A DNA stretch of 64,000 bases. Source: Candidatus Omnitrophota bacterium (GTDB lineage: Bacteria; Omnitrophota; Gorgyraeia; Gygaellales; Profunditerraquicolaceae). Both the position numbers and the translations under genes were made by a program. Where the stretch lies: assembly GCA_050012075.1 (NCBI GenBank), contig JBEKHW010000001.1, forward strand, positions 4,766 to 68,765. Reading direction: 5' to 3'. This document shows, piece after piece, positions 7,082-60,981 of the stretch (positions are counted from its first letter, which is position 1; each line of letters opens with the position of its first letter). The notes under the pieces are model-generated. The model had not been told where the DNA came from and did not search any database. It saw only the letters and a list, made by a program, of their open reading frames with translations.

Positions 7082-7142
7082 TTTTAACCCCTCAATTACT
7101 AATTACTATTTACTAAACAATTATACCACTTTACCCGTATTC

Positions 7143-7865: not shown

Positions 7866-8222
7866 CTAACCTTCTGACCTTCGTTTGATAAATTCATCTA
7901 ATTTGTCGAGTGATTTTGCATCGGGGTCAGAAAATCTAATCCTTATTTCATAAATAAAATCTTTGGCAAGTTCCCGGCATTCAAGAACTACTCCCGTCAT
8001 CGTTATATCAACTCCATGGGTAAAAGGCCCTCTTATGATGAATTCCATATTCGCCCCTTCCTTAAAAGGCTTTTCCACTGTAAGCAACATACCGCCCCTG
8101 CTGATATTTTTGGTGCGGGTGAGGTTATAATTTTCTGACGTACCTTTAACTTTATAGTAAACAAAATAACCTTCTGCTAATCTTTGATATTTTCTCCGCT
8201 CTGAACTTTCAAAGTCATGCAT
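7866..8222 (-). CDS. PilZ domain protein (c-di-GMP receptor-like)
   Basis: RRKYQRL...(D/N)ISRGGM matches the PilZ RxxxR...D/NxSxxG motif. Confidence 0.65.
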   Translation of the reverse strand: MHDFESSERRKYQRLAEGYFVYYKVKGTSENYNLTRTKNISRGGMLLTVEKPFKEGANMEFIIRGPFTHGVDITMTGVVLECRELAKDFIYEIRIRFSDPDAKSLDKLDEFIKRRSEG

Positions 8223-8303
8223 CCCTGTCTCCTAGCCCACAAGGGCACGCCGGCGCATCCGATAGCGCCGGGCGTTAGCCCAATAATTATACCATACTCT
8301 CTT

Positions 8304-8384
8304 AGCGGGTGGCTGCCGAGACGAAGGCCTTGCCGCGCGCAACGCAGTGAGCACGGCGAGGTGGCTCGGCAGACAGGACCCGCT
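8304..8384. repeat. structured ~81-bp repeat, short form U1 (AGCGGGTGGCTGCCGAG...CTCGGCAGACAGGACCCGCT long hairpin)
   Basis: About 90% identical to 8716-8797. Its termini match the ends of the ~200-bp elements at 14494-14690 and 46737-46931. Lies between the promoter-like hairpin and the PilZ start codon, i.e. in the 5' leader. Confidence 0.6.
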
Positions 8385-8437
8385 AACTAATTATACCGCC
8401 CGAAATAAAAAATACCAGGCACATTTTCCGCGCCTGG

Positions 8438-8683
8438 TTATCTTCTGGTTATCTGGAGATTTACTGTAATTGATATCATAAAAGAGATAAAAAGCACGAA
8501 TATATAAAAAATAAATAATTGCACTAAGAAATCTTTGGCTGTTATTTTCTTTACACCGGGTAAAAGTTTTATATAGGCATTCCCGATCAAAGTCCACACT
8601 ATTGTTCCAAATAGACAAAAAATAAACAGTATTATAGCTAATATTAAACGCTTTGATAAAAATGCCATTTGCTTAACAGGCAC
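8438..8683 (-). CDS. small membrane protein (81 aa, 2 TM)
   Basis: Hydrophobic ORF bracketed by the U1 and U2 repeats. Confidence 0.4.
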   Translation of the reverse strand: MPVKQMAFLSKRLILAIILFIFCLFGTIVWTLIGNAYIKLLPGVKKITAKDFLVQLFIFYIFVLFISFMISITVNLQITRR

Positions 8684-8715
8684 CGGAGATTACCTTATAA
8701 CTGCCTAACTCTCTT

Positions 8716-8797
8716 AGCGGGTGGCTGCGGAGCCGAGGCCCCTGCCGCGCGCAACGCCAGTGAGCACGGCGGGGTGGCGCAGCAGACAAGACCCGCG
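8716..8797. repeat. structured ~82-bp repeat, short form U2
   Basis: Near-identical copy of 8304-8384, with compensatory changes in the stem (CCGAG/CTCGG becomes CGGAG/... GCGCAG). Confidence 0.6.
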
Positions 8798-8895
8798 AAT
8801 TAATTATACCACCCAAAATAAGAAAACCCAGGCACATTTTCCGTGCCTGGGCTCCTCTCGCCCCCTGCCCTATGGGAACGTCTCCGTATTTTCTT

Positions 8896-9375
8896 TTATA
8901 GTGGATCCTGCGCCTTATTCAAAATCGAATCAATCTCCCGAGTATCATTTCGAGCCCGCTCCTCTTCCCGCGCCTGCTTATGGAGCTGCTGTAGTTGCCA
9001 TTCTCCTTGCTGCCGCACTTGCTTATGGAACTGCTGTATTTGCCATTCTTCTTCCTGCCGCGCCTGCTTTAAGTTTGCCTTTGGATTTTCTTTTTGTTTC
9101 GCTTCAGATTGTCCTTCTCTTAACGGGAGCTGTTCTTGTCGTATATGAACCTGGGGTTTAATCTGTGGCGGAAATATTACCAAAACGGCGATAATTAAGA
9201 TACCGATAATTAAACCATATATTAAATCTTTTTTAATACTGCGGCTTATAGGTAATACCAATGGCCTATGGCAATAATCGCACACTACCGCGGTATCCAA
9301 AACCATTCTTGCACAATAAGGACATTTTTTCACCGCTTGCTTCGGGTAAACAACTCTTAATGGTTTTTTATCCAT
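8896..9375 (-). CDS. zinc-ribbon/TM protein with Gln-rich imperfect repeats
   Basis: N-terminal CPYC...CDYC zinc ribbon, one TM helix, then repeated EEEWQIQQFHKQVRQQGEWQLQQLHKQ. The DNA carries ~45-bp tandem repeats at 8950-9060. Confidence 0.45.
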   Translation of the reverse strand: MDKKPLRVVYPKQAVKKCPYCARMVLDTAVVCDYCHRPLVLPISRSIKKDLIYGLIIGILIIAVLVIFPPQIKPQVHIRQEQLPLREGQSEAKQKENPKANLKQARQEEEWQIQQFHKQVRQQGEWQLQQLHKQAREEERARNDTREIDSILNKAQDPL

Positions 9376-9398
9376 AGTATTCTGTGTGCATTATGAGG

Positions 9399-9440
9399 TG
9401 CTATTTATCTAAAGGGTGGTACCCCGGGGAACGTTCCCTT
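9399..9440. repeat. short form of the intergenic module: CATAG-loop terminator remnant plus GGGAACGTTCCC palindrome
   Basis: TGCTATTTATCTAAAGGGTGGTACCCCGGGGAACGTTCCC is shared with 10140-10165, 11125-11150 and 13125-13160. Confidence 0.55.
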
Positions 9441-9457
9441 ATCCCCGTCTTATATCT

Positions 9458-9796
9458 TTAGCCTTGGCTTTGCATTTTGACTGTTATTGCTTTTATAAAT
9501 TTTATCCCTAGGCTACTAATTGTACTACCAACTATAACAATAAACAGCATAAACAAATAATATAAAAATACATTTACAATCTTTCTTAATTCTGGATCTA
9601 ATGTAATCTTTATTAGTGTAGGCTGACTAGCTGCATCAGAGGATGCTGAAAGGCTTAAACTCTGCATCTGAAATAGTTCAGGTGGGTTGGCTGTATTTGT
9701 AAAGACATTACACATAGAATAGAATGCAAACAATATGCAGATTAGTCCTATACAAAACATAACATAACCGAATATCTTTTCTGTATCTGAACTCAT
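9458..9796 (-). CDS. small membrane protein (112 aa)
   Basis: Start set at ATG 9794-9796 preceded by GGAAGGAGG. Two TM helices. Confidence 0.45.
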   Translation of the reverse strand: MSSDTEKIFGYVMFCIGLICILFAFYSMCNVFTNTANPPELFQMQSLSLSASSDAASQPTLIKITLDPELRKIVNVFLYYLFMLFIVIVGSTISSLGIKFIKAITVKMQSQG

Positions 9797-9914
9797 TTCT
9801 ACCTCCTTCCAACAAAAAAGCAACCCTGTATATCTGATAAGCGCTACCCCGCCACTGCAAATATTAGATATAATTATATCTTGGATAATCGATCAATTCA
9901 AGATAATCAGATAC

Positions 9915-10165
9915 TGCCCAAAATAAAGGATCCCAAGCCTTTTCCGCGCCTGGGATTAAAATTAAAGCAGCCACTGGCGTATTGCTTTAATTTTACGCCG
10001 AGCTCTGCGAGGCGAAATTAAAACAGCCACTCGATTTAGCCGTGCCTTTGGCGTTTACGGCTAAATCGCCCTTCGCTCTGCGAAGGGGGTTGCTTATGCC
10101 AAAATCACACCGAGCTATGCTCGGTGCTATTTACCTAAAGGGTGGCACCTTCGGGAACGTCCCTA
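9915..10165. repeat. intergenic module A (~250 bp): promoter/terminator hairpin, CGCCGAGCTCTGCGAGGCG, GGCTAAATCGCCCTTCGCTCTGCGAAGGGGG, CACCGAGCTATGCTCGGTG, GGGAACGTCCC
   Basis: Long blocks more than 90% identical to 12086-12345, and partly to 10856-11150, 13054-13185 and 38280-38400. Confidence 0.6.
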
Positions 10166-10180
10166 TATCTCAAGTCCCTA

Positions 10181-10831
10181 TTATTTTATACTGACATTAA
10201 TTTCATCAGAGCCGAATGACTGCCCTGATCCATCTCTTCCGCCGGCTGATATTTCTAGCTGGCTCGGAGAAGCATTGCCGGGTATAGTAAATACCAGCTC
10301 AAAAGGCGGCTCTGTATCAAGGGCTGATGCGTATGCTCCAGCGCCTATTAAAACCATAGTAACCCCTCTGTCGGCATCTACCTTGACATGCACTGTATCC
10401 CCGGGATGAAACACATCGCCTTCCCTAGGAGAAACTATCTTTACGGCAATTGTTTTATTCGGCTTTATCATGCTGTTTTCTACCTTACGTAACATGGATT
10501 TAACACGAGAAATTTCATCTATTCTTTTGGCCTGTCTCTGATTTCCCTCTTCGATGTATAATTGCTTTGCCTGCAGATAATTTTGTTCTGCTTTCTGATT
10601 GTCTCCCAAGTGCGCATAGACTTCTCCCAGTTGGAAATAGGCATCTGCATAGTTCGGCTGCAGTTCAATGGCCTTTTGGAGACTAAGAATGGCCTTCTCA
10701 TATTCACCGGATATACAATATTCATAACCTTCTTTGTAATATGTACCTGACTCGCTTGCAAATGCCGATAAAGCCAACAAACACAAAAACACGCTACACA
10801 CTAATACCGACCCTATTCCAATCTTCTTCAT
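10181..10831 (-). CDS. secreted TPR-repeat protein
   Basis: Signal peptide, two or three TPR units (AILSLQKAIELQPNYADAYFQLGEVY), then a beta-rich C-terminal domain. Confidence 0.55.
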   Translation of the reverse strand: MKKIGIGSVLVCSVFLCLLALSAFASESGTYYKEGYEYCISGEYEKAILSLQKAIELQPNYADAYFQLGEVYAHLGDNQKAEQNYLQAKQLYIEEGNQRQAKRIDEISRVKSMLRKVENSMIKPNKTIAVKIVSPREGDVFHPGDTVHVKVDADRGVTMVLIGAGAYASALDTEPPFELVFTIPGNASPSQLEISAGGRDGSGQSFGSDEINVSIK

Positions 10832-10854
10832 TCTTCCTCCTTATCTATATTAAG

Positions 10855-10883
10855 ATTATACCGCCCAAAATAAAAAATCCCAA
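10855..10883 (-). promoter_or_regulatory. sigma70-like promoter TTGGGA-17 nt-TATAAT, embedded in a hairpin that doubles as a terminator-like structure
   Basis: Minus strand reads CTTGGGATTTTTTATTTTGGGCGGTATAAT, followed 18 nt later by AAGGAGG and the ATG of the 10181-10831 gene. The same box recurs upstream of the genes at 8683, 9796 and 12014. Confidence 0.5.
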
Positions 10884-11150
10884 GCGTTTTCACGCCTGGG
10901 ACCGTCTTGCAACTACCTGCTTTATAAAGAGTTGATTTCGGCGTGCCCCCTGCGTTTTGATTTTGGCATACCTCTCGATTTAGCCGTGCCTTTGGCGTTT
11001 ACGGCTAAATCGCCCTTCGCTCTGCGAAGGGGGTTGTTTATACCAAAAACATCCTTCACGGTGTGAAGGATATGGCGTAAACGCCGAAATCACACCGAGC
11101 TATGCTCGGTGCTATTTATCTAAAGGGTGGTACCCTGGGGAACGTCCCCT
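10856..11150. repeat. intergenic module B (~295 bp)
   Basis: Shares the promoter hairpin, CGTCTTGCAACTA box, GGCTAAATCGCCCTTCGCTCTGCGAAGGGGG, CACCGAGCTATGCTCGGTG and GGGGAACGTCCCC blocks with modules A, C and D. Confidence 0.6.
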
Positions 11151-11162
11151 ATATTCATCCCC

Positions 11163-11561
11163 CTATCTTTTCGAAAAGTCATGTTTCATAATAAAGACTA
11201 TAATTACCCCAGTTGCGATAAACACCAATATGAGGAATAACGGAATCCTACTGAAGCTCTCAGCTATCGGATAGGGAAGCAACGGGTCGATCATTATTAT
11301 TGATAGAAGGCTATATATAATCGCCGGTATCTTGGCTTGACCCTTCAAAATAAGGATAAGCGCAAGAATTAAGCATATTATAGCGGGGATAACAATCAAT
11401 AAAGGCAGAAATCCTCCTAAAAGATTCCAGCCTCCGTGACGATTAGTCTCAACAATTGAAAAAACGATAACAAGAAATGCTAAACACTGCAATATAAAGA
11501 GAGCTGTAGCAGCAATAAATAGACCACTATATTTTTTGTGCTGATTTCCTGCCATATGCAA
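11163..11561 (-). CDS. small membrane protein (132 aa, 3-4 TM)
   Basis: Hydrophobic ORF. 25-bp spacer to the next gene contains AGGGAACGTTCCCC. Confidence 0.45.
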   Translation of the reverse strand: MHMAGNQHKKYSGLFIAATALFILQCLAFLVIVFSIVETNRHGGWNLLGGFLPLLIVIPAIICLILALILILKGQAKIPAIIYSLLSIIMIDPLLPYPIAESFSRIPLFLILVFIATGVIIVFIMKHDFSKR

Positions 11562-11585
11562 ACCTTCGATCGATGCGATCCGCTC

Positions 11586-12014
11586 CTAGGGAACGTTCCC
11601 CATTCTTCCAAATTGTTCCCTTATCTCTGAGCGGGTAAGATAGTAAATCTCCCAAATAAAATAAATGATACCTACAGATAAAACGATATATCTACCTAAG
11701 TAATATAATATTTTATCTGGATAACTTTTCAAGGTCACTACAAAGACTATCCCCAAAACCAATATTCCAAATATTGCAAAAATGATATTTTCTTTTCTTG
11801 CCTTAATCCTCAATTTAAAGGTAAAAAATCCTAATTGTATAAAATAAGCGGCAAACAGTAAATAGGGAATTATTACGAACGCTAATGCCAATAAAGAAAA
11901 AATCCAATGGGGATTCTTAATTATGGCCTGGAATACAAGACCTATTAGAAAAATACCCATAAAAAAATTGATGCCAATGATTAGGTTAATTCCCGCTGGC
12001 CTTTTATTCCCCAT
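11586..12014 (-). CDS. small membrane protein (~142 aa)
   Basis: Start moved to ATG 12012-12014 (MGNKRPAG...), which sits behind GGAGGAGGG and the conserved TTGGGA-17-TATAAT box. The longer ORF-track start would read through the promoter. Confidence 0.45.
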   Translation of the reverse strand: MGNKRPAGINLIIGINFFMGIFLIGLVFQAIIKNPHWIFSLLALAFVIIPYLLFAAYFIQLGFFTFKLRIKARKENIIFAIFGILVLGIVFVVTLKSYPDKILYYLGRYIVLSVGIIYFIWEIYYLTRSEIREQFGRMGNVP

Positions 12015-12085
12015 CCCTCCTCCTTGTCCACGTGGACAACACCCGCGCAATACCGATAAGCGCGGAGTGCTAGTCCACATTGTAA

Positions 12086-12345
12086 TTATACCGCCCATAA
12101 CAAAAAATCCCAAGCCTTTTCCGCGCCTGGGATTAAAATTAAAGCAGCCACTGGCGTATTGCTTTAATTTTACGCCGAGCTCTGCGAGGCGAAATTAAAG
12201 CAGCCTCTCGATTTAGCTGTGCCTTTGGCGTTTACGGCTAAATCGCCCTTCGCTCTGCGAAGGGGGTTGCTTATGCCGAAATCACACCGAGCTATGCTCG
12301 GTGCTATTTATCTAAAGTGTAGCATCCTCGATAACGCCCCCTATT
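12086..12345. repeat. intergenic module C (~260 bp)
   Basis: Near-identical to module A over about 230 bp. Confidence 0.6.
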
Positions 12346-12375
12346 TTCGAGGCGAAACAATAGCCGCCTCTCTTT

Positions 12376-12429
12376 GAGGTGACATTTTGGCACCTCTAGC
12401 GCCCAAACTTGAAGTCACAATTTGTGATT
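12376..12429. promoter_or_regulatory. two ~25-bp palindromes TTGARGTCACAAWTTGTGAYYTCAA just 3' of the ORF6N gene; a third, perfect copy lies inside the gene at 12726-12750
   Basis: CTTGAAGTCACAATTTGTGATTTCAAG (12403-12429), TTGAGGTGACATTTTGGCACCTC (12376-12398), and TTGAGGTCACAAATTGTGACCTCAA (12726-12750, perfect). Confidence 0.4.
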
Positions 12430-12436
12430 TCAAGTT

Positions 12437-12943
12437 TTATCTTTTGGCAAAACCAATAATTCTTTTTTCCTCAGCCTTTGGTTGCTCAAGGAGTCTTTTA
12501 ATAGCTTCAAATACTGCGGCAAACTGTTTGTCATATTTATCTTCCATCTCTTCAATCTTACGCTTAAGATCTTTATGCGTTAAAAGCATGCGCCTGAAAT
12601 ATGTGAATGCGCGCATAATCTGGATATTCACCTGTATTGCTTTTGTGCTATTCAAAACACTCGAAAGCATTGCCACGCCTTGCTCCGTAAAAACATAAGG
12701 GAGATATCTTCTTCCGCCTCTTTTTGAGGTCACAAATTGTGACCTCAAAGCAGTAAACTCTCTTGCTTTTAATTGCCACATAAAATCATCTGGAAAACGT
12801 TCAGAATTTCGTTTTACTGCCTGAACAAGCGCTTTTGTTTCTACGCCATAAAGTTCTGCTAGGTCGCTATCCAACATCACCCTTTTTCCTCTTATCTGGT
12901 ATATTCTAGCCACAATTACTTCTACAGAAACTGAATTTGCCAT
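12437..12943 (-). CDS. ORF6N domain protein (KilA-N/Rha-antirepressor-like DNA-binding)
   Basis: [45 protein letters not shown] is the canonical ORF6N N-terminal domain. C-terminal coiled coil. Confidence 0.7.
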
Positions 12944-13053
12944 TTTTGAACCTCCGGCCTTAATAGACGTAAGAAGTGGTAGAATCTAACATATACCCCG
13001 GCAAGGACAACAACGCCCGATCCTATCGGATGAATCGGCGTATTGCCCTCTGC

Positions 13054-13185
13054 AATAAAAATCCCAAGCCTTTTCCGCGCCTGGGATCGTCTTGCAACTA
13101 TCTGGTCTATAAACAGTTATTTATCTAAAGGGTGGTACCTTCGGGAACGTCCCCATATTTTGCCATATTCTGGAACGTCCCTCTA
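13054..13185. repeat. intergenic module D (~130 bp, truncated; two GGAACGTCCC boxes)
   Basis: Shares the promoter hairpin, CGTCTTGCAACTATCTG and TATTTATCTAAAGGGTGGTACCTTCGGGAACGTCCCC blocks with modules A-C. Confidence 0.55.
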
Positions 13186-13275
13186 TTTCCCTGTAATCTA
13201 TCGGGGCATCCCACCAAACATCACCATTCTCAGAAAACTATTTTGAATTAAGTATCATATCCCTGAAACTCCCAT

Positions 13276-14418
13276 TTATATTTCCTTAAAATCATGGGGT
13301 ACTTCGATATGTCTATTTATGGACCCCCACAAGGAAAAGATTGCAGGATATGCTTTTTCTACTGCGATAACATCATCTTTTCTAAATTCTGGTATATTTA
13401 TTGCTGTAAAAAAGAAATTTTTAGCAGGATCTATTTGGTCCTTCCCAATATAATGATACGGATGATTCGTAAAAAAAAGAAATGCTGGTTTAATTGAATT
13501 TTCTTTTTTCTGTTGAACTTCAATTTGGCCAATAATTTTTACAAGAGGATTAAACCAGCTTATTTTAAAATTCCTTTCTTCTTCAGGAGGCATATTCACA
13601 TCTATAAAAATTATTCGTGCAAAGTCGGCGTGTTTCTTAAGCGCATCATTTAGGAGCTGCCCAATCCTGAACTTAATTTGACCTAAATCTTGTGGTTCTC
13701 CTTTTTGCCCAAGAAAACCGGGGCGATGACGACTTTTAGCCTCAACGGAATACTTATTATTAGTTTCCTTATGAGTTGCTAAAAATTCGCAGTGGGAGCT
13801 TGTTCTATTACTCTCATCCTCAAGTTGGATATTGAAGCCGGCTTTAATAAAAGAGGCGGTAACATATAATTCGTACCTAGCCCCCTGAAATTGGTCTTTA
13901 TTTTTGAGGCGCTCAATTAAGCTTTTTTGCAATAAAGAATGGTGGCGAAGCAGATAAAGATTATACGCTAAAGAAAGGTAGGCACCAACAGTTCCTGTGC
14001 AAGTTGCCACATATAGATCTCCTTCCTTAGCTACATTTCTCTTCTGAAACTCACACAATTCCCTATACCATTGAAGAATGGGATGCATTTCAGAAATATC
14101 TTTCTTTAATTCTATTGTTCCCCATTCAGGACCGAGGCATTGTTTTATATAATCCCCAAGGAAATCGTGAACAGTTTTCCACTTTTTTGAAGAATGCAGT
14201 TGGTTACCAACAGCGACCATTTTGTAACCATGAAAATCGGTGGATATGAATGGTCGGATATCACCGTATTTTTGTTTAGCGAGATGCTGATGTTTTAACT
14301 TTTCTTCAATTTCTTTTATCACTTCTGGAGGAATGCTATTGGAATGATTAAAGCCGCAACATTTCTTATATTTCTTACCACTGCCACAAGTACAAGGATC
14401 ATTTCTTCCAACTTTCAT
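13276..14418 (-). CDS. SEC-C motif protein with uncharacterised C-terminal domain (possible PD-(D/E)xK-like core)
   Basis: N-terminal [16 protein letters not shown] is the SecA C-terminal zinc-binding motif. The rest (about 330 aa) has no recognised family. NIQLEDE...KYSVEAKSR spacing is compatible with a D...ExK nuclease core; this is inference only. Confidence 0.55.
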
Positions 14419-14493
14419 TTCCTAATCTATTCTTTTTTCTCCAATTATACCACTCCAATTCCAAAATTATACTGTGGGACATTCCCCATCTCT

Positions 14494-14690
14494 AACGGGT
14501 GGCTGCGGAGCTGAAGTCATTCGCGGGTGACGAGGCATGTTTTGAGCAGGGCGTAACGCAGGCCGAACGGGCACGGTTCACCCGCTATAAAAAAGTCAGT
14601 GAGAGTGAGGCCGAGTAGCCGAGCGTGATTTTCCACGCTGGGGAAAATCACGCGGCCCTGCGAGAAATATGCCTCGGCAGGACCCGCGAC
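14494..14690. repeat. structured ~197-bp repeat, long form L1 (inverted relative to 46737-46931)
   Basis: AACGGGTGGCTGCGGAG...CCTCGGCAGGACCCGCGACC termini. Internal perfect 11-bp stem CGTGATTTTCC/GGAAAATCACG. Reverse complement aligns over its whole length with 46737-46931. Confidence 0.65.
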
Positions 14691-14695
14691 CTAGT

Positions 14696-16525
14696 TTAAA
14701 TCCGCCCAGAAACTTCTACCATCTTGCGAATTTCTTTATTCACAGGATGCCGCAGCAACTCCTCAAGCGAAATCGGTATGCGTAGCGACCAGTTTTTGGG
14801 ATTGACTGTGCCAGGAGTATTAATGCGGAACTGATACGCATCGCCCTGAAATGTATCGGCTAAATACAGCCAGTCAACAATCGTATTGACGCAGAATATG
14901 GCACTTGAATCAAGGGTTAACTTTAAGGCAGCGCGGATAATCTCTTTATCACATTTCTCCCGCATCGTCCCCTCTAACCCAAGCAGCTTCCAGAGTTTCT
15001 CCTTCTCATGGAAACTATTCTCATACAAATCTATGAAATCAGCTAAATCCTCTTTTTTGCGGGCTAACCCCTCAACAACCTTCTCTACCGAATTAATCTC
15101 TTCCTTCCAGCGTAACCTTGCGTAACGCGAGCGTTTGCTGTCAAAGAGCTTTACTTTTGCCGCCGCTACGTCAATATTGCGGTGGTCTCTGCATCTTCTG
15201 GTAAACAGCCCTTCATCAATTGTGCCTGCCTCATTCTCCCACCAGGCAGCCCAATTCGTAGTATCGTGCGTAGATAACATGGCAACAGAAAGCCCCCGGT
15301 ATTCCTCGGGCTTTAAGAAATCATGCCGCACCTTCCATTCCTTTCTCCAGCGCTGCACATCATTACCCGGGATTCCGAACTCCTGGAGACCGTCAGTGCA
15401 GGCCTTTGGTATAACACCCAGGTCCTCTGCGCAAAGCAGCATATCGGTATTATCAAGGAAGGCACTTAATAACTTCCTGCCGCGAGCATCCCACTGCGTT
15501 TCATCCGAGGGGTCAAAAAATCCATTGAGCCCCGCGTTCTCAAGCGGCTCATTATAAGGTATGCTCCAGATGCGGAAAAGCCCGACCACATGGTCAATCC
15601 TTATAATATCGTAAAACTCCCTGGCGTATTTTAATTTCTCTTTCAGGTAACGGAAACCGTCGGAAGCGATTTTCTCCCAGTTGTAGGTGGAGCTGCCCCA
15701 GCGCTGGCCGAGGCTAGTATACATATCAGGAGGCGCGCCCGCTGCAAAATCCAGCTTGAAATATTCAGGGTGCTGCCAGACATCGGCGCTGTCGCGGGAA
15801 ACCAATATCGGTAAATCACCTTTAAATAAAATTCCCTTCCCCTTCGCGTATACTGCCGCACTCTTTAACTGCTCATGGAGAAGCCACTGCAGCCAGACGA
15901 AAAATCCTATATCTTCCTCTTTTTGACGGGAAAACTCCTTAAGGGAAGCGTCATTACGGTATCTATATTTAGCATCCCAGGCATACCAAGGCAGGCCCCC
16001 ATGATAATCCTTAAGCGCCTTATAGAGCGCGAAATCAAAAAGCCAGTATGCATTTTTCCCTTTGAATTTTTCTAATTCCTTGTCAGGACGGCGGCCATAT
16101 TGCAGATACAACTTACGTAACATGTCTATCTTGGCTTCTTTTATCCCATAATCAAAATACAATGTATCCGGAGGGAATTTATTTTTTAAGTTTTCTACTT
16201 CGCTTTTATCCACTGAAATCGGCGCAGGTAACTCGGCGAAGGAAAAATAAGCCGGCTCAAGGGCAAAAGAACTTTCCGCGTCATACGGGCAGAAAAGGGC
16301 GCCCGTCTCATTTAAAGGCAATAGCTGCAAAATAGAGTTGCCGGTTTCCGCTGCCCAGTAAATAAACAGTTTTAAATCGGAGAAATCGCCTATGCCTAGA
16401 CTTGTCTTTGAATGGAGGGAGAAAAGCGGAACAGCTACCCCTGCCCTCTTTTTTACGCCGGCTCTTCTCCATTTATCCTGGGATTTGCCGACGAGGAGAG
16501 ATTCTTTAAGGTCGGGTGTATCCAT
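14696..16525 (-). CDS. malQ: 4-alpha-glucanotransferase (amylomaltase, GH77)
   Basis: N-terminal RAGV..PLFSL.S....GIGDF motif and GH77 catalytic-region motifs. Confidence 0.85.
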   Translation of the reverse strand: MDTPDLKESLLVGKSQDKWRRAGVKKRAGVAVPLFSLHSKTSLGIGDFSDLKLFIYWAAETGNSILQLLPLNETGALFCPYDAESSFALEPAYFSFAELPAPISVDKSEVENLKNKFPPDTLYFDYGIKEAKIDMLRKLYLQYGRRPDKELEKFKGKNAYWLFDFALYKALKDYHGGLPWYAWDAKYRYRNDASLKEFSRQKEEDIGFFVWLQWLLHEQLKSAAVYAKGKGILFKGDLPILVSRDSADVWQHPEYFKLDFAAGAPPDMYTSLGQRWGSSTYNWEKIASDGFRYLKEKLKYAREFYDIIRIDHVVGLFRIWSIPYNEPLENAGLNGFFDPSDETQWDARGRKLLSAFLDNTDMLLCAEDLGVIPKACTDGLQEFGIPGNDVQRWRKEWKVRHDFLKPEEYRGLSVAMLSTHDTTNWAAWWENEAGTIDEGLFTRRCRDHRNIDVAAAKVKLFDSKRSRYARLRWKEEINSVEKVVEGLARKKEDLADFIDLYENSFHEKEKLWKLLGLEGTMREKCDKEIIRAALKLTLDSSAIFCVNTIVDWLYLADTFQGDAYQFRINTPGTVNPKNWSLRIPISLEELLRHPVNKEIRKMVEVSGRI

Positions 16526-19725: not shown

Positions 19726-19787
19726 AGTTCATGGTTCATGGTTCATGGTTGATAGTACTATGAACTATCCACTATGAACTATGAACT
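19726..19787. repeat. heptamer hairpin R1: (GTTCATG)x3, loop, (ATGAACT)x3. Abuts the leuA ATG and is followed by TTTTTT on the + strand
   Basis: AGTTCATGGTTCATGGTTCATGG ... CTATGAACTATCCACTATGAACTATGAACT. Same family at 23265-23338, 25002-25063 and 39517-39599. Confidence 0.65.
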
Positions 19788-19826
19788 ATTTTTTCATCCA
19801 TTGTTACTTCTTCGTTGAAGGCATTA

Positions 19827-19882
19827 CTTTTCGGCAAGCCACTGGCGTTTTTGCCGAAAAGTACACCGAGCCATGCTCGGTG
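19827..19882 (-). terminator. tandem hairpins 3' of ilvC, including the CATAG-loop hairpin CACCGAGCCATGCTCGGTG
   Basis: Two GC-rich stems (CTTTTCGGCAAGCC..GGCGTTTTTGCCGAAAAG and CACCGAGCCATGCTCGGTG) immediately downstream of the ilvC stop. Confidence 0.5.
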
Positions 19883-20895: not shown

Positions 20896-20961
20896 TTCAT
20901 TCCTCCCCTTAAAATAAGCCATGCCACTGGCGTTGATTTTGGCGTGCCTTTGGCGTAAACG

Positions 20962-20989
20962 CCAAAATCACGCCGCGCTATGCGCGGCG
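20962..20989 (-). terminator. rho-independent terminator of ilvN (CGCCGCGCATAGCGCGGCG + UGAUUUU on the mRNA)
   Basis: Perfect 7-bp GC stem with 5-nt CAUAG loop followed by a U-rich run. Same hairpin type at 32254-32272, 48630-48648, 60761-60779 and inside modules A-C. Confidence 0.6.
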
Positions 20990-21007
20990 CTAGTCCACTG
21001 TTTTTAC

Positions 21008-23264: not shown

Positions 23265-23338
23265 GGTTCATGGTTCATTGTTCATGGTGTAAAGCTCTAA
23301 ACCATGAACTATCCACTATGAACTATGAACTAAGTATA
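23265..23338. repeat. heptamer hairpin R2 (GTTCATG family) between ilvD and ilvB; contains the ilvD stop codon
   Basis: GGTTCATGGTTCATTGTTCATGG...CCATGAACTATCCACTATGAACTATGAACTAAGT. The ilvD TAG stop is the CTA at 23323-23325 in the right arm. Confidence 0.65.
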
Positions 23339-25001: not shown

Positions 25002-25063
25002 AGTTCATTGTTCATGGTTCATAGTTGTCCTACTATGAACCATCCACTATGAACTATGAACTA
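25002..25063. repeat. heptamer hairpin R3 (GTTCATG family) between the aldolase-like gene and ilvD; contains the upstream stop codon
   Basis: AGTTCATTGTTCATGGTTCATAG..CTATGAACCATCCACTATGAACTATGAACTAATC. The stop of the 25061 gene is the CTA at 25061-25063. Confidence 0.65.
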
Positions 25064-26386
25064 ATCTGCGCCTTCTCCGTCGTGCACAACTTCTTTACCT
25101 TCTTTACGTTTACGCACAATAACGCGCTTGAGAAGAATATTCTTATCAATGAGGTCACGGTTATTGATATTGCTTAGCTGCTTAAACAGGAAATCAAATT
25201 TATTTTCTATTTCGGCGGCAATCGCCTCCCGCACCTCTTTCGATAAACCCATGATTTCTTTCTTAAAAGGACCTAACGCTTTTTTGCGCGCCTTATACAA
25301 AAACTGGTCTTCGGTTTCCCCTTCTTTTTTCTCGGAAGCGGCGTTTACCTTAAGCCATTCATAGATCCTGTTTTTTAGGTCTGCAGGAAAATGCTTACTC
25401 TCATAAATCATATTCTGGAACTCTGTAGCCAGGTGCACCTCTGCGCAGTCGCATTCCGCGAATTTATGGAATGCCTCTGCGGGCAAGGTAGAAGCGCCAT
25501 GCTGTACCGCGCCTGAAAGCCCGTATTCCTTACGCGCGATCTCCGAAAGTGCCTTTAGAGTATTAAAATCCAGCTTAACCTGGGCGATGGAACCGTCAGG
25601 AAGGACGACCCCGCCGTGCGAAGTGCCTGTCTGCACGGAAATTTTACTTATGCCGATTAACCCTTTCCTTAATCTTTCTTTGTATCCGGCCATAAAAGCA
25701 CGCAGCTCTTCGGCAGTAGAATTCGCGTGGCCTACTTCACCTATTTCTCCTCCTACGGAAACCGTTACCCCGCGCGGCTCGACACGCCTGATAAACTGTG
25801 TAAGTTTTGCGCAGGCCTCATAATTATTCCTTTGTTGCTTTTTTACGTCGGGTTTGGATAAATCCACGAGCGTAGAAGAATCAATATCAATATTGTAAAA
25901 CCCGGCTGAAATCGCATCCGCAATCAAATCCTGCAATCCTTGCAGTTCTTTCTCCGGATTCTCCTGATACTTCTTGGCATTGACCTGGGTGTGGTCTGCC
26001 TGGATAAAAACAGGGCCCTGCCAATCTTCTTTTATCGCGGCTGCCAATATAACCGCAGAGTATTCAATAGGCGGCTGGGCAGTATAACCCATCTCTGATT
26101 TTGCAATCTCAAAGATAAATGCGCCGGAATTATTACGCTTGGCAACCTTAAAGAGAGCGCGCGCAAGGTCATAGGTCATACTTCTTAAATTGATTGCCGG
26201 GACTGTAAAGCCGCTGAATTCTCCCCTGCCGCGCGCCATATAAAAATCATGAATACTGGAAGGATAAATACCTTTTTTATAAGCTATCTCGCTTATCTTC
26301 TTGGCCAGCTTTTTCTTAAGCGGCATATCGTCACTCATTATCAGCTCAAAAACAATCTTCTCGATGTCCAAAGGATTCCTTCCCAT
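25061..26386 (-). CDS. class II (metal-dependent) fructose/tagatose-bisphosphate aldolase family protein, long form
   Basis: About 440 aa with IQADHT and GTSHGG boxes, which resemble the class II aldolase DH and GxxHG metal/phosphate motifs. Sits next to pfkA. Family assignment is tentative. Confidence 0.5.
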   Translation of the reverse strand: MGRNPLDIEKIVFELIMSDDMPLKKKLAKKISEIAYKKGIYPSSIHDFYMARGRGEFSGFTVPAINLRSMTYDLARALFKVAKRNNSGAFIFEIAKSEMGYTAQPPIEYSAVILAAAIKEDWQGPVFIQADHTQVNAKKYQENPEKELQGLQDLIADAISAGFYNIDIDSSTLVDLSKPDVKKQQRNNYEACAKLTQFIRRVEPRGVTVSVGGEIGEVGHANSTAEELRAFMAGYKERLRKGLIGISKISVQTGTSHGGVVLPDGSIAQVKLDFNTLKALSEIARKEYGLSGAVQHGASTLPAEAFHKFAECDCAEVHLATEFQNMIYESKHFPADLKNRIYEWLKVNAASEKKEGETEDQFLYKARKKALGPFKKEIMGLSKEVREAIAAEIENKFDFLFKQLSNINNRDLIDKNILLKRVIVRKRKEGKEVVHDGEGAD

Positions 26387-32202: not shown

Positions 32203-32290
32203 CCCTCACCCTCCTTAAATAAGCCATGCCTATGGCGTTTATGGCTTATTTAACTCCACGCTATGCGTGGAGCTTCATTTTAGTAATGTC

Positions 32291-38255: not shown

Positions 38256-38516
38256 GTTAAAATTAAAGCTCCCTTGATTTCGGCGTGCCTCTGGCGATTA
38301 CGCCGAAATCACACTTTGCTCTGCAAAGTGCTTGGCGCAATTGTTAATTTTACGCCGAGCCCTGCGAGGCGCATACATTAACTATCCTAAGCCCTGCGCG
38401 ACCAAAATAAATTCTGGAAATTCTTTCCCCACACCACTTTAAGTTTTTAGCAGCGTTCAATTAAGAAACATATTATATCCGCCTGCGGCGGATAGCTGTT
38501 AAAAACTTGTCGTTCA

Positions 38517-39227: not shown

Positions 39228-39379
39228 TCGCTCCTCGCTAAAGCTTCGTCGCTCCCCAAAGGGGCTCTGCCCCTATGGCGCTCACTCACTCCGTTCGTTC
39301 GCTGTTACCCCGAAAGCGTGGGGAAAATATCTTTTCCCCACACCCCTTTTGCGTTCTCGTCGCGGGGACAGAAATTTAT

Positions 39380-39516: not shown

Positions 39517-39599
39517 AGTTCATTGTTCATGGTTCATGGTTCATGGTTCATGGTTCATGGTTGTCCTGCTATGAACCATCCACTATGAACTATGAACTA
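39517..39599. repeat. heptamer hairpin R4 (GTTCATG family, six left-arm units) overlapping the frr stop codon
   Basis: AGTTCATTGTTCATGG(TTCATGG)x4..loop..CTATGAACCATCCACTATGAACTATGAACTAA. The frr TAG is the CTA at 39597-39599. Confidence 0.65.
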
Positions 39600-40157
39600 A
39601 AATTCAAGTATTTCTTTTTCTTTATTCTTTAAGAGCTCGTCAATCTTTGCGATATACTTATCGACAAGCTTTTGCAATTCATCTATCCCGCGAAACTTAT
39701 CGTCTTCTGAAATTGCCTTGTCTTTCTCAAGTTTCTCTAATGTTTCTTTGGAATCGCGCCGGATGGTGCGTAAAGACACCCTTCCTTCTTCCGTCATATT
39801 GTGCACCACTTTTGCCAACTCCTGGCGCCTCTCTTTTGAAAGCTGCGGGAATGACAATCGCACAACCTTGCCATCATTGGAAGGTGTAATGCCAAGATTA
39901 GATTTAAGGATAGCCTTCTCAATCTCGGGAACAGCCGAAACATCCCATGGTTGAATCATCAACAAGTGGGCATCCTGGGTAGAAATAGAGGCCAACTGTT
40001 TTAACAGGGTCGGGGCCCCATAATAATCAATATGCAGTCCTTCAACCAGATGAGGGCTTGCCCTTCCTGTGCGTATCTCGGAAAATTCACGGGTAACCGA
40101 ATCAAATGCCTTTTTCATTTTCTCTTCGGAGCTATGTAAGATTTCCTTAACTGTCAT
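39597..40157 (-). CDS. frr: ribosome recycling factor
   Basis: 186 aa. Conserved RTGRA and PQLSKERR regions. Confidence 0.9.
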   Translation of the reverse strand: MTVKEILHSSEEKMKKAFDSVTREFSEIRTGRASPHLVEGLHIDYYGAPTLLKQLASISTQDAHLLMIQPWDVSAVPEIEKAILKSNLGITPSNDGKVVRLSFPQLSKERRQELAKVVHNMTEEGRVSLRTIRRDSKETLEKLEKDKAISEDDKFRGIDELQKLVDKYIAKIDELLKNKEKEILEF

Positions 40158-46731: not shown

Positions 46732-46736
46732 TAGTT

Positions 46737-46931
46737 TCGCGGGTCCTGCCGAGGCGCGTTCTCGCAGGAACGCACGATTTTCCCCAGCGTGGAAAATCGC
46801 GCTCGGCTCCTCGGCCTCGCTCGTCCAATACAAGATTGTTTCGGGGACACCTTGCCCGCTCGGCCTGCGGACGTCCTGCTCAAATCGCGCCTCGTCACCC
46901 GCGAATGATTTCGGCTTAGCAGCCACCCGCT
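46737..46931. repeat. structured ~195-bp repeat, long form L2 (reverse-complement copy of 14494-14690)
   Basis: Starts 5 bp after the lpxB stop. Termini TCGCGGGTCCTGCCGAGG...GCAGCCACCCGCT. Confidence 0.65.
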
Positions 46932-48571: not shown

Positions 48572-48648
48572 ATTAACCTCCGCTTAGCTAGTTAAATAAA
48601 CAATACCCCTGGTGCCTATTGTTTATTTACGCCGCGCTATGCGCGGCG

Positions 48649-50043
48649 TTAGTTAATTATTACTTCTTCGTCTTTATAAGGTAAGTACGCCTCGATATTC
48701 TTTTCCTTAAGCGCATCCCGAAGCGCCTCTGACTGGTCCTGGTCTCCGTGGACGAGGAACACTTTTTTTAGAGGGAGGCAGGCAGAAATGAAATTTATCA
48801 GGTCATTTTTATCGGCATGCCCAGAGAATGAGTTTATTACCTCTACTTCTGCGTTTAATTCATACTCCACTCCGAATATGCGCACAAAAGGAAACTTTTC
48901 CACGATCCTTTTACCGAGGGTATCCTGCGCCATATATCCTACCACGAGGATCGTGTTGCGGGAATCCTCAATATTATTCTGCAGGTGATGCAAGATCCTG
49001 CCGGATTCGCACATGCCGCTTCCGGCGATGATAATCATCGGCCGCTTGTCATTATTCAGTGCCTTTGACTCTTCTTTGTCGCGTATGTACCTTAAATTCA
49101 GGAAATTAAACGGGCTATCGCCGCTGTTAATTGCCTGCGATATCTTCTTCTTCATATAGCCTGAGTGATGCTCAAAGGCATCTGTAATAGCGGTGGCCAA
49201 GGGGCTATCCACATATACAGGGACTACGGGAATGGCTTTTTCCTTAATCAGCTCGCTTAAGAAATAAACCACCTCCTGCGTCCTCTCCAAGGTAAACGAT
49301 GGAATAAGTATTTTGCCTTTGCGCGCGACCGTGCGATTGATCACCTCTTTTAACTTGGTTTTTGCTTCTTCTATAGGCGCGTGCAGCCTTCCTCCATAAG
49401 TACTTTCAATAATCAGGTAATCCAGGCCTTTTAACTTTGCCGGGTCATTGAGTAAAGGCAACCCCTTCCTGCCAAGGTCCACCGCATAACCGATTCTTGA
49501 CATACCGCTGTCCTCCTTTATATCCAACACGATAATTGCGGAACCCAGGATATGTCCGGCGTCATACAGAGTAACCCAGGTATCCTTGGTCAGACATAGT
49601 TTCTGCCCATAGGATATAGGACGGATCTTTTTTGCGGCCTTACTTGCTTCTTGACTGGTATAAAGGGGTTTTCTTAATCCAAGCCCCAGCCTCTTATTAA
49701 TTTTATTTACATACTTTATATCTTCTTCCTGTATCTTTCCGGAATCTTCAAGCATAATCCTGCATAAATCCTTGGTAGCAGACGTAGCATAAATCCTGCA
49801 GCGAATGCCTTGTTTCACCAGGCTCGGCAAATTCCCGCAGTGGTCGATGTGCGCGTGGGAGAGGATAACGGCGCTAAGCAGGCGCGGGTTATAGTGAAAA
49901 GTGGTATTCACCTGATAAAACTCGTCGCGTCTGCCCTGGAATAACCCAACATCAAGCAGGATATTGGAACGGGCAGTACTTATCAAGTGGCTGGAGCCGG
50001 TAACCGTGCGTACGCCGCCCAGGAATTTTAATTTTATCGCCAT
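48649..50043 (-). CDS. beta-CASP family MBL-fold ribonuclease (RNase J/CPSF-like)
   Basis: HAHIDHCGNLP metallo-beta-lactamase motif 2, followed by beta-CASP motifs and a C-terminal RNA-specificity domain. Confidence 0.7.
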   Translation of the reverse strand: MAIKLKFLGGVRTVTGSSHLISTARSNILLDVGLFQGRRDEFYQVNTTFHYNPRLLSAVILSHAHIDHCGNLPSLVKQGIRCRIYATSATKDLCRIMLEDSGKIQEEDIKYVNKINKRLGLGLRKPLYTSQEASKAAKKIRPISYGQKLCLTKDTWVTLYDAGHILGSAIIVLDIKEDSGMSRIGYAVDLGRKGLPLLNDPAKLKGLDYLIIESTYGGRLHAPIEEAKTKLKEVINRTVARKGKILIPSFTLERTQEVVYFLSELIKEKAIPVVPVYVDSPLATAITDAFEHHSGYMKKKISQAINSGDSPFNFLNLRYIRDKEESKALNNDKRPMIIIAGSGMCESGRILHHLQNNIEDSRNTILVVGYMAQDTLGKRIVEKFPFVRIFGVEYELNAEVEVINSFSGHADKNDLINFISACLPLKKVFLVHGDQDQSEALRDALKEKNIEAYLPYKDEEVIIN

Positions 50044-60720: not shown

Positions 60721-60760
60721 TCTCTTCTCCCTAAATAAATGATGCTTATAGTTTTGTTTA

Positions 60761-60779
60761 CTCCGCGCTATGTGCGGAG
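60761..60779 (-). terminator. CATAG-loop hairpin CTCCGCACATAGCGCGGAG between the HD-GYP operon and the giant gene
   Basis: 7-bp GC stem with CAUAG loop, 40 nt upstream of the giant-gene RBS. Same hairpin type as the ilvN terminator at 20962-20989. Confidence 0.45.
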
Positions 60780-60981
60780 CTTCTATACCCCATATAAACA
60801 AAAATCCGGATTAACCCTTTAATGTTAATCCGGTTATGGCTACTTCAGGAAGTAACCCGTGGCGTATTCTAGCGTCCTCCACACCAGAATCACCGGAATA
60901 CTAAATACTTTTTAAAATTACGCTATAAAGTATATACTATACAATAATTTTGTCAAGGCAAAATCTTAAAAAAAATGCCTT

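Follow-up and report, generated by a model that had tools for sequence, protein, structure and literature searches.

The DNA analyzed here (the window, 64 kb) belongs to a 203,740-nt contig in a metagenome-assembled genome (MAG) of Candidatus Omnitrophota; the closest other MalQ is 73% identical. Downstream of malQ (14696–16525) and ahead of ttcA, the window carries an array of nine unrelated, AT-rich genes, all on the minus strand (7866–14695), and the spacers between these genes are assembled from a common kit of repeated sequence blocks. The array is flanked by chromosomal housekeeping operons, namely ilv-leuA-aroE-malQ and, on the opposite side, ttcA-rmuC. The rest of the window likewise holds housekeeping genes, nearly all on the minus strand; besides the ilv/leuA/aroE/pilD/malQ block, ttcA and rmuC, these include metK, ahcY, pfk, fba, ptsI, rpsB, tsf, pyrH, frr, lpxB, pyrG and three tRNAs. 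An independent ENA assembly differs from the window locus at a single base in 21,830, and Logan unitigs (SRR7028477) are 100% identical to it. Because the two contig assemblies and the unitigs agree, we ruled out an assembly artefact as the source of the array structure. The unitigs end inside repeats, at window positions 14596 and 9959 and in a copy of the B3 hairpin (described below) about 2 kb past the window.

Gene content of the array

Annotation combined Pfam scans of window open reading frames (ORFs) of at least 100 amino acids with the public gene list, and transmembrane (TM) segments were assigned from hydropathy. In order of transcription, the array begins with a SEC-C-motif protein of 380 amino acids (13276–14418; Pfam SEC-C), a member of a family with a patchy distribution across phyla; a sequence search of the PDB with this protein returned a match limited to the 20-residue SEC-C motif. 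The second gene (12437–12943) encodes an ORF6N/Rha-like protein (Pfam ORF6N, 3e-36; anti-repressor in PHROGs) that matches the phage-defense candidate family PDC-S05 of PADLOC over its full length (2e-59). Two four-TM proteins follow, TM142 (142 amino acids, 11586–12014), which has only five distant relatives among 1.84 billion representatives, and, 30 nt past it, TM130 (130 amino acids, 11163–11555). The fifth gene (10181–10831) encodes an exported TPR/Ig-like protein of 216 amino acids, an orphan with no real homologue among 5.8 billion clusters; look-ups of this protein and of the NAPRTase returned no record. It is followed by a two-TM protein of 112 amino acids (9458–9796) and by a single-TM zinc-ribbon protein of 159 amino acids with a Gln-rich 45-nt repeat (8896–9375), for which the Pfam match to a zinc ribbon is weak. 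The eighth gene, missed by the public gene caller, encodes the two-TM protein TM81 (8438–8683), which has 81 amino acids or fewer if an internal ATG is used. The last, a PilZ-domain gene with a GC content of 0.38 (7866–8222), is the final variable gene ahead of the conserved ttcA-rmuC block. Hydropathy assigns 2–4 TM segments to each of the four small array proteins.

A preliminary description of this DNA had listed eight minus-strand ORFs with these annotations. All eight exist as annotated (SEC-C, ORF6N, TPR and the weak zinc ribbon by Pfam, the remainder by hydropathy), and we count a ninth because the PilZ gene is also AT-rich and is itself preceded by a module. The ORFs had also been said to lack mutual similarity, and we find neither significant pairwise similarity nor hidden paralogy among them. 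Their GC content is 0.29–0.43, against 0.461 ± 0.023 in neighboring genes, and that of the spacers is 0.44–0.60. The spacers measure 30–422 nt, a wider range than the 100–310 bp given earlier.

Within the ORF6N gene we also observe a 27-nt perfect palindrome, TTTGAGGTCACAAATTGTGACCTCAAA (12723–12749), and a related 33-nt hairpin, AAACTTGAAGTCACAATTTGTGATTTCAAGTTT, lies directly past the stop codon of the same gene (12405–12437). The two may be paired as an operator or a terminator that is particular to this cassette.

Architecture and distribution of the spacer modules

Aligning the spacers on the transcribed strand (alignment A2) defines a backbone module of about 115 nt. It consists, in order, of AATATA, the palindrome B1 (GGGRACGTTCCC), the block B2 (GGTACCACCCTTTAGATAAATA), a linker (...CAGRTAGTTGCAAGACGR) and the stem-loop B7 (CCCAGGCGCGGAAAAGGCTTGGG), after which come a T-run and GGGCGGTATAAT. 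These blocks, several of which had been named earlier, occur far above chance. B1, 12 bp long, has six array copies where about 1.9 would be expected in the whole 64 kb; it is found at eight of the nine junctions, usually 13–22 nt past the stop codon and in one case overlapping it. B2 has five copies, at five junctions, against an expectation of 0.01. For B7, a five-of-six pattern yields four copies and the exact 30-mer three, with none expected for either, and a B7 hairpin is present at six junctions, all within 6.8 kb. No block is present in every spacer, contrary to what had been proposed. The stems of the B7 hairpins vary between copies while their pairing is kept, their folding energies range from −15.6 to −25.8 kcal/mol, and each is followed by a U-rich tract. 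A −35 box, TTGGGA, is embedded in the descending 3′ arm of the B7 stem, 17 nt from TATAAT, and this combination is intact in two junctions only. The cassettes are co-oriented, and most are preceded by a TATAAT that resembles a promoter of their own and by a hairpin that resembles a terminator.

The nine junctions, all read from the minus strand, differ in how much of this backbone they retain. Upstream of the SEC-C gene (14444–14494) lie a B1-like sequence, GGGGAATGTCCC (14479–14490), a promoter-like TAGAGA-17-TATAAT and GGTATAAT. The spacer past the SEC-C gene (13040–13189) is the bare backbone: two B1 copies in tandem (13171–13180 and 13143–13154), B2 (13118–13139), the linker and B7 (13056–13085). 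The next one (12085–12342) combines degenerate B1 and B2 with a cluster of the hairpins B3–B6 and a B7 carrying TTGGGA-17-TATAAT, and it has lost the linker. In the 30-nt junction between TM142 and TM130, only B1 is found, overlapping the stop codon of TM142 (11589–11600). A full backbone returns at 10855–11150, with B1 at 11138–11149, B2 at 11113–11134, the linker, B7 at 10876–10903 and TATAAT at 10855–10862; here a hairpin cluster of about 190 nt is inserted between B2 and the linker. The spacer at 9911–10164 has B1, B2, the hairpin cluster and B7, lacks the linker and has a −10 box that mutation has turned into TATCTG; nearby, at 9873–9901, there is a separate TTGAAT-17-TATAAT. At 9402–9438 we find B1 and B2 alone, broken off 5 nt into the B3 hairpin and without a promoter module. 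The last two spacers end in short copies of a further element, B8. One (8699–8885) carries B1 (8874–8885), a B7 hairpin with TATAAT (8803–8855) and B8-short (8699–8803); the other (8284–8438) carries a B7 hairpin with TATAAT (8390–8438) followed by B8-short (8287–8390) and has no B1.

In this last spacer, B8-short is flanked by an exact 10-bp direct repeat, GGTATAATTA (8388–8397 and 8284–8293), which may be a target-site duplication or may represent a second promoter −10 box. As a target-site duplication it is suggestive only, because the 10-mer is identical to the −10 motif of the array promoters and the window contains 14 such 10-mer repeats through chance or low complexity.

Duplication in the array is confined to the spacers. 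The spacers at 9911–10163 and 12088–12340 are 93% identical over 253 nt with sharp edges, in good agreement with the identity of more than 90% noted before, and the ORFs that flank them are unrelated. In addition, TM81 lies between two copies of a unit of B7 and B8 that are 412 nt apart. The blocks also occur apart from one another, as B1 alone, as B1 with B2 and as B7 alone.

Outside the array, the kit separates into an array-specific part and a dispersed part. We observe no copies of B1, B2 or B7 in the remaining ~57 kb of the window, of which ~5.5 kb is intergenic. B1 with up to one mismatch has no copies in 269 kb of other fetched loci, which rules it out as a lineage-wide regulator site. 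The spacer sequences have no significant match in the fetched related loci except for the ~190-nt B8 element. B2 has no match in GTDB representative genomes and the JGI metagenome collection, and B7 has a single chance match, to unrelated high-GC DNA, in the metagenome collection; the contig of the window itself is not part of these data sets. B2, B7 and B1 with its flank have no match in 2.9 million viral contigs, and a phage origin of the kit was therefore dropped. Rfam returns nothing for the array at the gathering threshold or at E ≤ 5. The −10 part of the module is another matter: GGTATAAT also lies upstream of rmuC (7120–7127) and is present in the related contig L007, where genes are in addition preceded by GGCGGTATAAT and CAGGTATAATTA, so this part reflects a promoter consensus of the lineage.

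The hairpin blocks B3–B6 belong to the dispersed part. A model of an 8-bp stem with a GC-WNW-GC apex finds 11 copies in the window against 0.45 expected, all of them intergenic and all with the same flank asymmetry, TGATTT coming after the hairpin on the transcribed strand. Of the 11, five are outside the array, at ilvN/ilvC, metK/NTP-transferase, tRNA-Gly, tRNA-Leu/tRNA-Lys and M48/beta-CASP, and a further copy sits by a glutamate-synthase gene beyond the right end of the window. The preliminary description had reported a module fragment near the tRNA cluster, and this fragment is real, being a mosaic of B6-, B4- and B5-like hairpins beside tRNA-Gly (38270–38371) in an order unlike that of the array. 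It had overlooked recurrences at 19.86, 20.97, 32.25, 39.26 and 48.63 kb: a copy 3′ of ilvC (19864–19882), a pair of B5-like and B3-like hairpins between ilvN and ilvC (20935–20994), copies at 32254–32272 and 39258–39276, and one at the 3′ end of the beta-CASP gene (48629–48649). In the array the hairpins run B3-B4-B5-B6; at 38.3 kb they run B6-B4-B5, and at 20.9 kb B3-B5. Within the array, hairpin clusters are nested in three of the backbone modules, and the CACCGAGC hairpin occurs at three junctions plus a 5-nt stub.

These hairpins are a dispersed repeat family resembling repetitive extragenic palindromes (REP) and bacterial interspersed mosaic elements (BIME), and their U-rich tails suggest that they act as terminators or 3′ stabilizers. 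Families of the REP/BIME class have an associated RAYT gene, which encodes a Y1 transposase, and occur in more than 100 copies per genome. As in REP, BIME and REPIN sequences (PMC2817692, PMC3333891, PMC3116915), B3–B6 are extragenic palindromes of 19–35 nt beside many unrelated genes, mostly at gene 3′ ends, and form mosaics of variable order with fixed orientation and conserved flanks. They differ in that the stems vary with compensatory changes around the GC-WNW-GC apex instead of following a single homogeneous consensus, and in that no RAYT gene is present in the window. The REP/BIME class also accounts for only part of the kit. The idea that the kit is a genome-wide terminator or promoter consensus consequently holds for the hairpin blocks and fails for B1, B2 and the B7 hairpin. 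For genome scans this carries a caution, since an apparent cassette kit can consist largely of dispersed terminator hairpins and a lineage promoter consensus.

Three plus-strand mini-ORFs (10042–10194, 10932–11066 and 12219–12377) share the sequence PLAFTAKSPFALRRGL and owe their existence solely to the repeated hairpin cluster that they traverse. Almost certainly none of them is a gene, but they could be mis-annotated as a small protein family.

Variability of the interval and origin of the array

Related genomes reveal that the malQ-ttcA interval is a variable hotspot, and it has the properties of a hyperplastic accessory or defense islet. Its upstream edge is marked by a long copy of B8 that follows malQ. 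In the related contig L003, whose MalQ is 65% identical, synteny is kept on both sides (ilv...pilD-malQ and ttcA-rmuC-...), and the interval between malQ and ttcA instead contains Ymh, FRG and one unknown gene, preceded by a B8-type element. L007 starts inside a B8-type copy and continues with a GGCGGTATAAT promoter, a RES gene, a SEC-C gene with 87% DNA identity to that of the array and, adjoining the latter, a Y1 transposase gene (Y1_Tnp). Homology to the SEC-C gene extends to five other contigs (79–87% at the DNA level) in four different neighborhoods. In all of them (loci L007–L010, L037 and L038) the homology spans only window positions 13274–14424, which is the ORF ± 6 nt, and these breakpoints do not coincide with B1 at 13143–13180 and 14479–14490. 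The earlier reading of the locus as a site of cassette exchange is partly supported, in that the locus is variable and has ORF-sized units of homology, and is not supported as regards a mechanism of the integron, shufflon or pilS type.

The SEC-C family (~380 amino acids; L007, L008, L009/L010 and L037) is always encoded by the downstream gene of a pair. The upstream partner varies and has a RES domain, an LTD domain or an HNH domain or is an unknown 441-amino-acid protein, and methyltransferase and LexA/S24 genes are often found around the pair. This arrangement suggests a two-gene defense or toxin–antitoxin-like module; in the window, SEC-C stands alone.

How such an array arises has a possible precedent in phages. 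In T4-type phages, composite promoter/terminator stem-loops termed PeSLs fill the stop-to-start gaps of hyperplastic regions, where they precede ORFans, and recombination between them has been shown experimentally to yield indels and mini-circles (Arbiol et al. 2010, PMC2839356; Comeau et al. 2014, PMC4122927). The array modules correspond to PeSLs in several respects. Both combine a sigma70-like promoter with a terminator stem-loop between stop and start codons, and in one PeSL subclass the stem overlaps the −35 box, as it does in B7. Both are repeated and clustered in a hyperplastic region before small ORFans, with unrelated genes on their flanks. Neither is accompanied by a dedicated recombinase, exchange among PeSLs proceeding by homologous recombination between motifs, as we infer for the array. 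There are also differences. The Omnitrophota array lies in a bacterial chromosome between housekeeping genes and not in a phage, its module is longer, its B1 palindrome and B2 have no PeSL counterpart, and host repeats are nested within it. Recombination and mini-circles were demonstrated in the phages, whereas the array is known from sequence alone.

Our preferred, still tentative interpretation is that the array core is a PeSL-like composite terminator/promoter module that would give each acquired gene insulated expression and would at the same time supply homology for recombinational gain, loss and shuffling of genes. We favor it because the duplication of spacers alone matches the behavior shown for PeSLs in T4-type phages. 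The B7 stem-loop would terminate transcription arriving from the upstream gene, and the promoter overlapping its stem would restart transcription, so that every acquired gene would be expressed in insulation from its neighbors. The repeated modules, 40–250 nt long, could serve as substrates for RecA-type recombination, be it through unequal crossover, through gene conversion or through circles that are excised and integrate again. Genes would thereby be added, deleted and shuffled without a dedicated recombinase, each circle carrying one module. Integration of such a circle at another module would duplicate only the spacer, as is seen around TM81; alternatively, gene conversion could have spread an insert between modules that already shared B1/B2 and B7. 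The REP/BIME-like hairpins and the miniature B8 copies would then be secondary passengers, copied along with the modules.

Several points weigh against the PeSL-like interpretation. Promoter and terminator activity of the modules, as well as any recombination event, are predictions from their sequence, and promoter-like matches in the region are overall no more frequent than in shuffled sequence (17 against an expectation of 17.1). No recombination event was seen: the three assemblies, which represent one population, display no alternative junctions or structural variation of the kind that the preliminary description had proposed to look for, and the collections contain no close strain with the kit. 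The interpretation leaves unexplained B1, the sole block present at nearly every junction, including the bare 30-nt one. To our knowledge, PeSLs are known from phages and not from bacterial chromosomes. Finally, because the sample covers 64 kb (and ~2 kb on its right) of a genome of at least 204 kb, the terms array-specific and recombinase-free apply to that sample.

If the module works as proposed, the PeSL principle would extend beyond T4-type phages to the chromosome of an uncultured phylum. Gene arrays resembling integrons could then form by a route that needs no recombinase, in which one unit both insulates and shuffles, and there would be a practical signature for accessory and defense hotspots in MAGs, namely repeated spacers of normal GC content between AT-rich orphan ORFs.

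The prominence of B1 would instead be accommodated by a site-specific array resembling integrons or rAID-1, in which B1 (GGGRACGTTCCC) or B1 with B2 would be the recombination site and the recombinase would be encoded elsewhere in the genome. We consider this unlikely, and it keeps some weight because B1 is found at almost every junction, near stop codons and alone between TM142 and TM130, and because one tandem pair of B1 copies 28 nt apart (13143–13180) could be the scar of an empty site. The confinement of SEC-C homology to the ORF also fits. Integrons have an IntI-type tyrosine recombinase and attI next to the array. An attC site, the recombination site of integrons, is an imperfect inverted repeat of 57–141 nt with R″ (RYYYAAC) and R′ (GTTRRRY) boxes that forms one hairpin with extrahelical bases; a CALIN is a cluster of attC sites without an integrase, and integron cassettes are mostly promoterless. 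The array resembles a sedentary integron in its co-oriented small orphan cassettes, its AT-rich coding sequences and its similar repeats of ~100 nt starting just past the stop codon, and it resembles a CALIN in having no adjacent integrase. It departs from both in lacking attC architecture (R″/L″/L′/R′ boxes and a single imperfect hairpin) and an IntI. Most of its cassettes also have promoter-like and terminator-like signals of their own. Folded as single-stranded DNA, either strand of the bare backbone forms small hairpins apart from one another, and its two ends stay unpaired (z about −1.8); a full spacer folds as a chain of independent hairpins, and by inspection the spacers contain no R″ or R′ boxes. 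B1 is only 12 bp long and has no internal spacer, below the size of known tyrosine- and serine-recombinase sites. The search for an integrase or invertase suggested earlier came back negative, as Pfam scans of ORFs of at least 100 amino acids and the public gene list reveal no integrase, recombinase, invertase or transposase in the 64 kb. The SEC-C breakpoints away from B1 and the absence of variant junctions in the assemblies speak against site-specific exchange as well.

[quoted passage not shown] An adjacent XerD-family recombinase defines rAID-1, however, and no such gene lies within 64 kb here, in a different phylum; nor do the array proteins show homology to immunity genes in Pfam, PADLOC or PHROGs, unlike those of rAID-1. 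A bolder version of the site-specific idea, in which B1 is the core site of an undescribed Omnitrophota gene-capture system, analogous to integrons, with self-promoted and self-terminated cassettes and an unlinked or novel recombinase, strikes us as distinctly improbable.

We assign a low likelihood, too, to the backbone being a small non-autonomous mobile element or mobile promoter, of the Correia type or a miniature inverted-repeat transposable element (MITE), that was inserted repeatedly between pre-existing genes. Homologous sequence upstream of non-homologous genes fits the definition of a putative mobile promoter (Matus-Garcia et al. 2012, PMC3488235), and the array shares with these and with Correia elements (PMC3024310) a conserved promoter-bearing sequence of 50–100 nt in that position. 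This genome moreover hosts dispersed small repeats of several kinds (the hairpins, the B8 family and palindromes of GTTCATG heptads), and the 93% identical 253-nt copies are sharp-edged. Those elements are dispersed through genomes, however, and Correia elements have terminal inverted repeats and TA duplications, whereas the array copies are confined to one 6.8-kb stretch with none in the other ~57 kb. The backbone has no terminal inverted repeats, because its ends do not pair; a MITE had been entertained because B2 resembled an inverted −10 region, with TACCRCCC as the only match, and was rejected when the ends stayed unpaired on folding. By inspection, the module flanks show no consistent target-site duplication. 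The occurrence of B1, B1 with B2 and B7 as separate blocks fits recombination or deletion better than transposition.

A single static transfer, in which the whole 6.8-kb block came from one donor, such as a degraded phage or island, and the repeats represent the regulatory grammar of that donor, appears quite unlikely. It would account for the uniformly low GC content of the ORFs, the anti-repressor-like phage protein ORF6N, the identity of the three assemblies and the absence of the kit from relatives. The spacers, however, hold host-type hairpins and B8 derivatives and have a GC content at or above that of the host, which indicates that they are native or long resident. The kit is absent from the 2.9 million viral contigs, the window contains no phage structural or integration genes, and three other lineages vary at this locus. 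A gene duplicated in tandem together with its spacer, with extreme coding divergence afterwards, would explain why the spacers repeat directly and all in one orientation, but this is effectively refuted by the unrelated families and folds of the products (SEC-C, ORF6N, TPR, zinc ribbon, PilZ, two-TM and four-TM), which lack pairwise similarity and of which SEC-C and ORF6N have wide families of their own elsewhere.

The B8 element and other repeats

The B8 copies at 14497–14694, 8699–8803 and 8287–8390 were missing from the preliminary inventory of blocks. The first, on the minus strand directly past the malQ stop codon, is a long form of ~170–190 nt that scores 172.9 bits with the covariance model R1, and a second long copy lies on the plus strand after lpxB (46732–46920). 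A syntenic copy follows MalQ in L003 (11904–12093), and in L013 a copy is found 12 nt past a same-strand ORF of 610 amino acids, which is MalQ-sized and unannotated. Scanning with the core of the ~190-nt element identified 26 loci (L011–L036) in about 14 Omnitrophota MAGs, some of them labeled "Planctomycetales", with up to five copies per genome. Every copy is intergenic, and both orientations with respect to the adjacent genes occur; the copies are near-identical within a genome and differ between genomes by compensatory changes.

We examined covariation in a 27-sequence alignment with a five-helix structure, using slid controls and 500 shuffles. In the alignment, 87.5% of cells are paired, against 30–47% in the slid controls, and 24 of 37 pairs have changed on both sides, against 9–13. 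The covariation score is 0.39, compared with at most 0.15 in the slid controls, and none of the 500 shuffles reaches the observed values. No Rfam family corresponds to the element. B8 is thus a candidate for one of two things, a non-coding RNA present in multiple copies or structured mobile DNA, and as a well-supported family outside Rfam it merits a study of its own.

The two B8-short copies of the array, each ~95 nt and just past the TATAAT of a promoter module on the minus strand, align with the covariance model in both arms of the outer stem only; their interiors are shorter and unrelated. Because both arms align and the interior is replaced, we regard them as miniature derivatives. The presence of both arms also ruled out that an island had integrated at the 3′ end of an RNA gene and left B8-short as displaced 3′ fragments. 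In L003, one half of B1, GGGACGT, is found at three places in ~160 nt past the malQ stop codon (11788–11960), twice before the B8 element and once inside it.

A third family of dispersed intergenic repeats in the window is built from GTTCATG heptads in tandem, with their inverted complement after them (CTATGAAC...). It is found between leuA and ilvC (19728–19789), ilvB and ilvD (23272–23333), and ilvD and fba (25003–25064), and beside tRNA-Lys/frr (39525–39600), and has no copies in the array. Elsewhere on the minus strand, a giant ORF of 2,745 amino acids (52564–60801) contains three diverged tandem repeats of ~603 nt with 66–89% identity (57729–59448).

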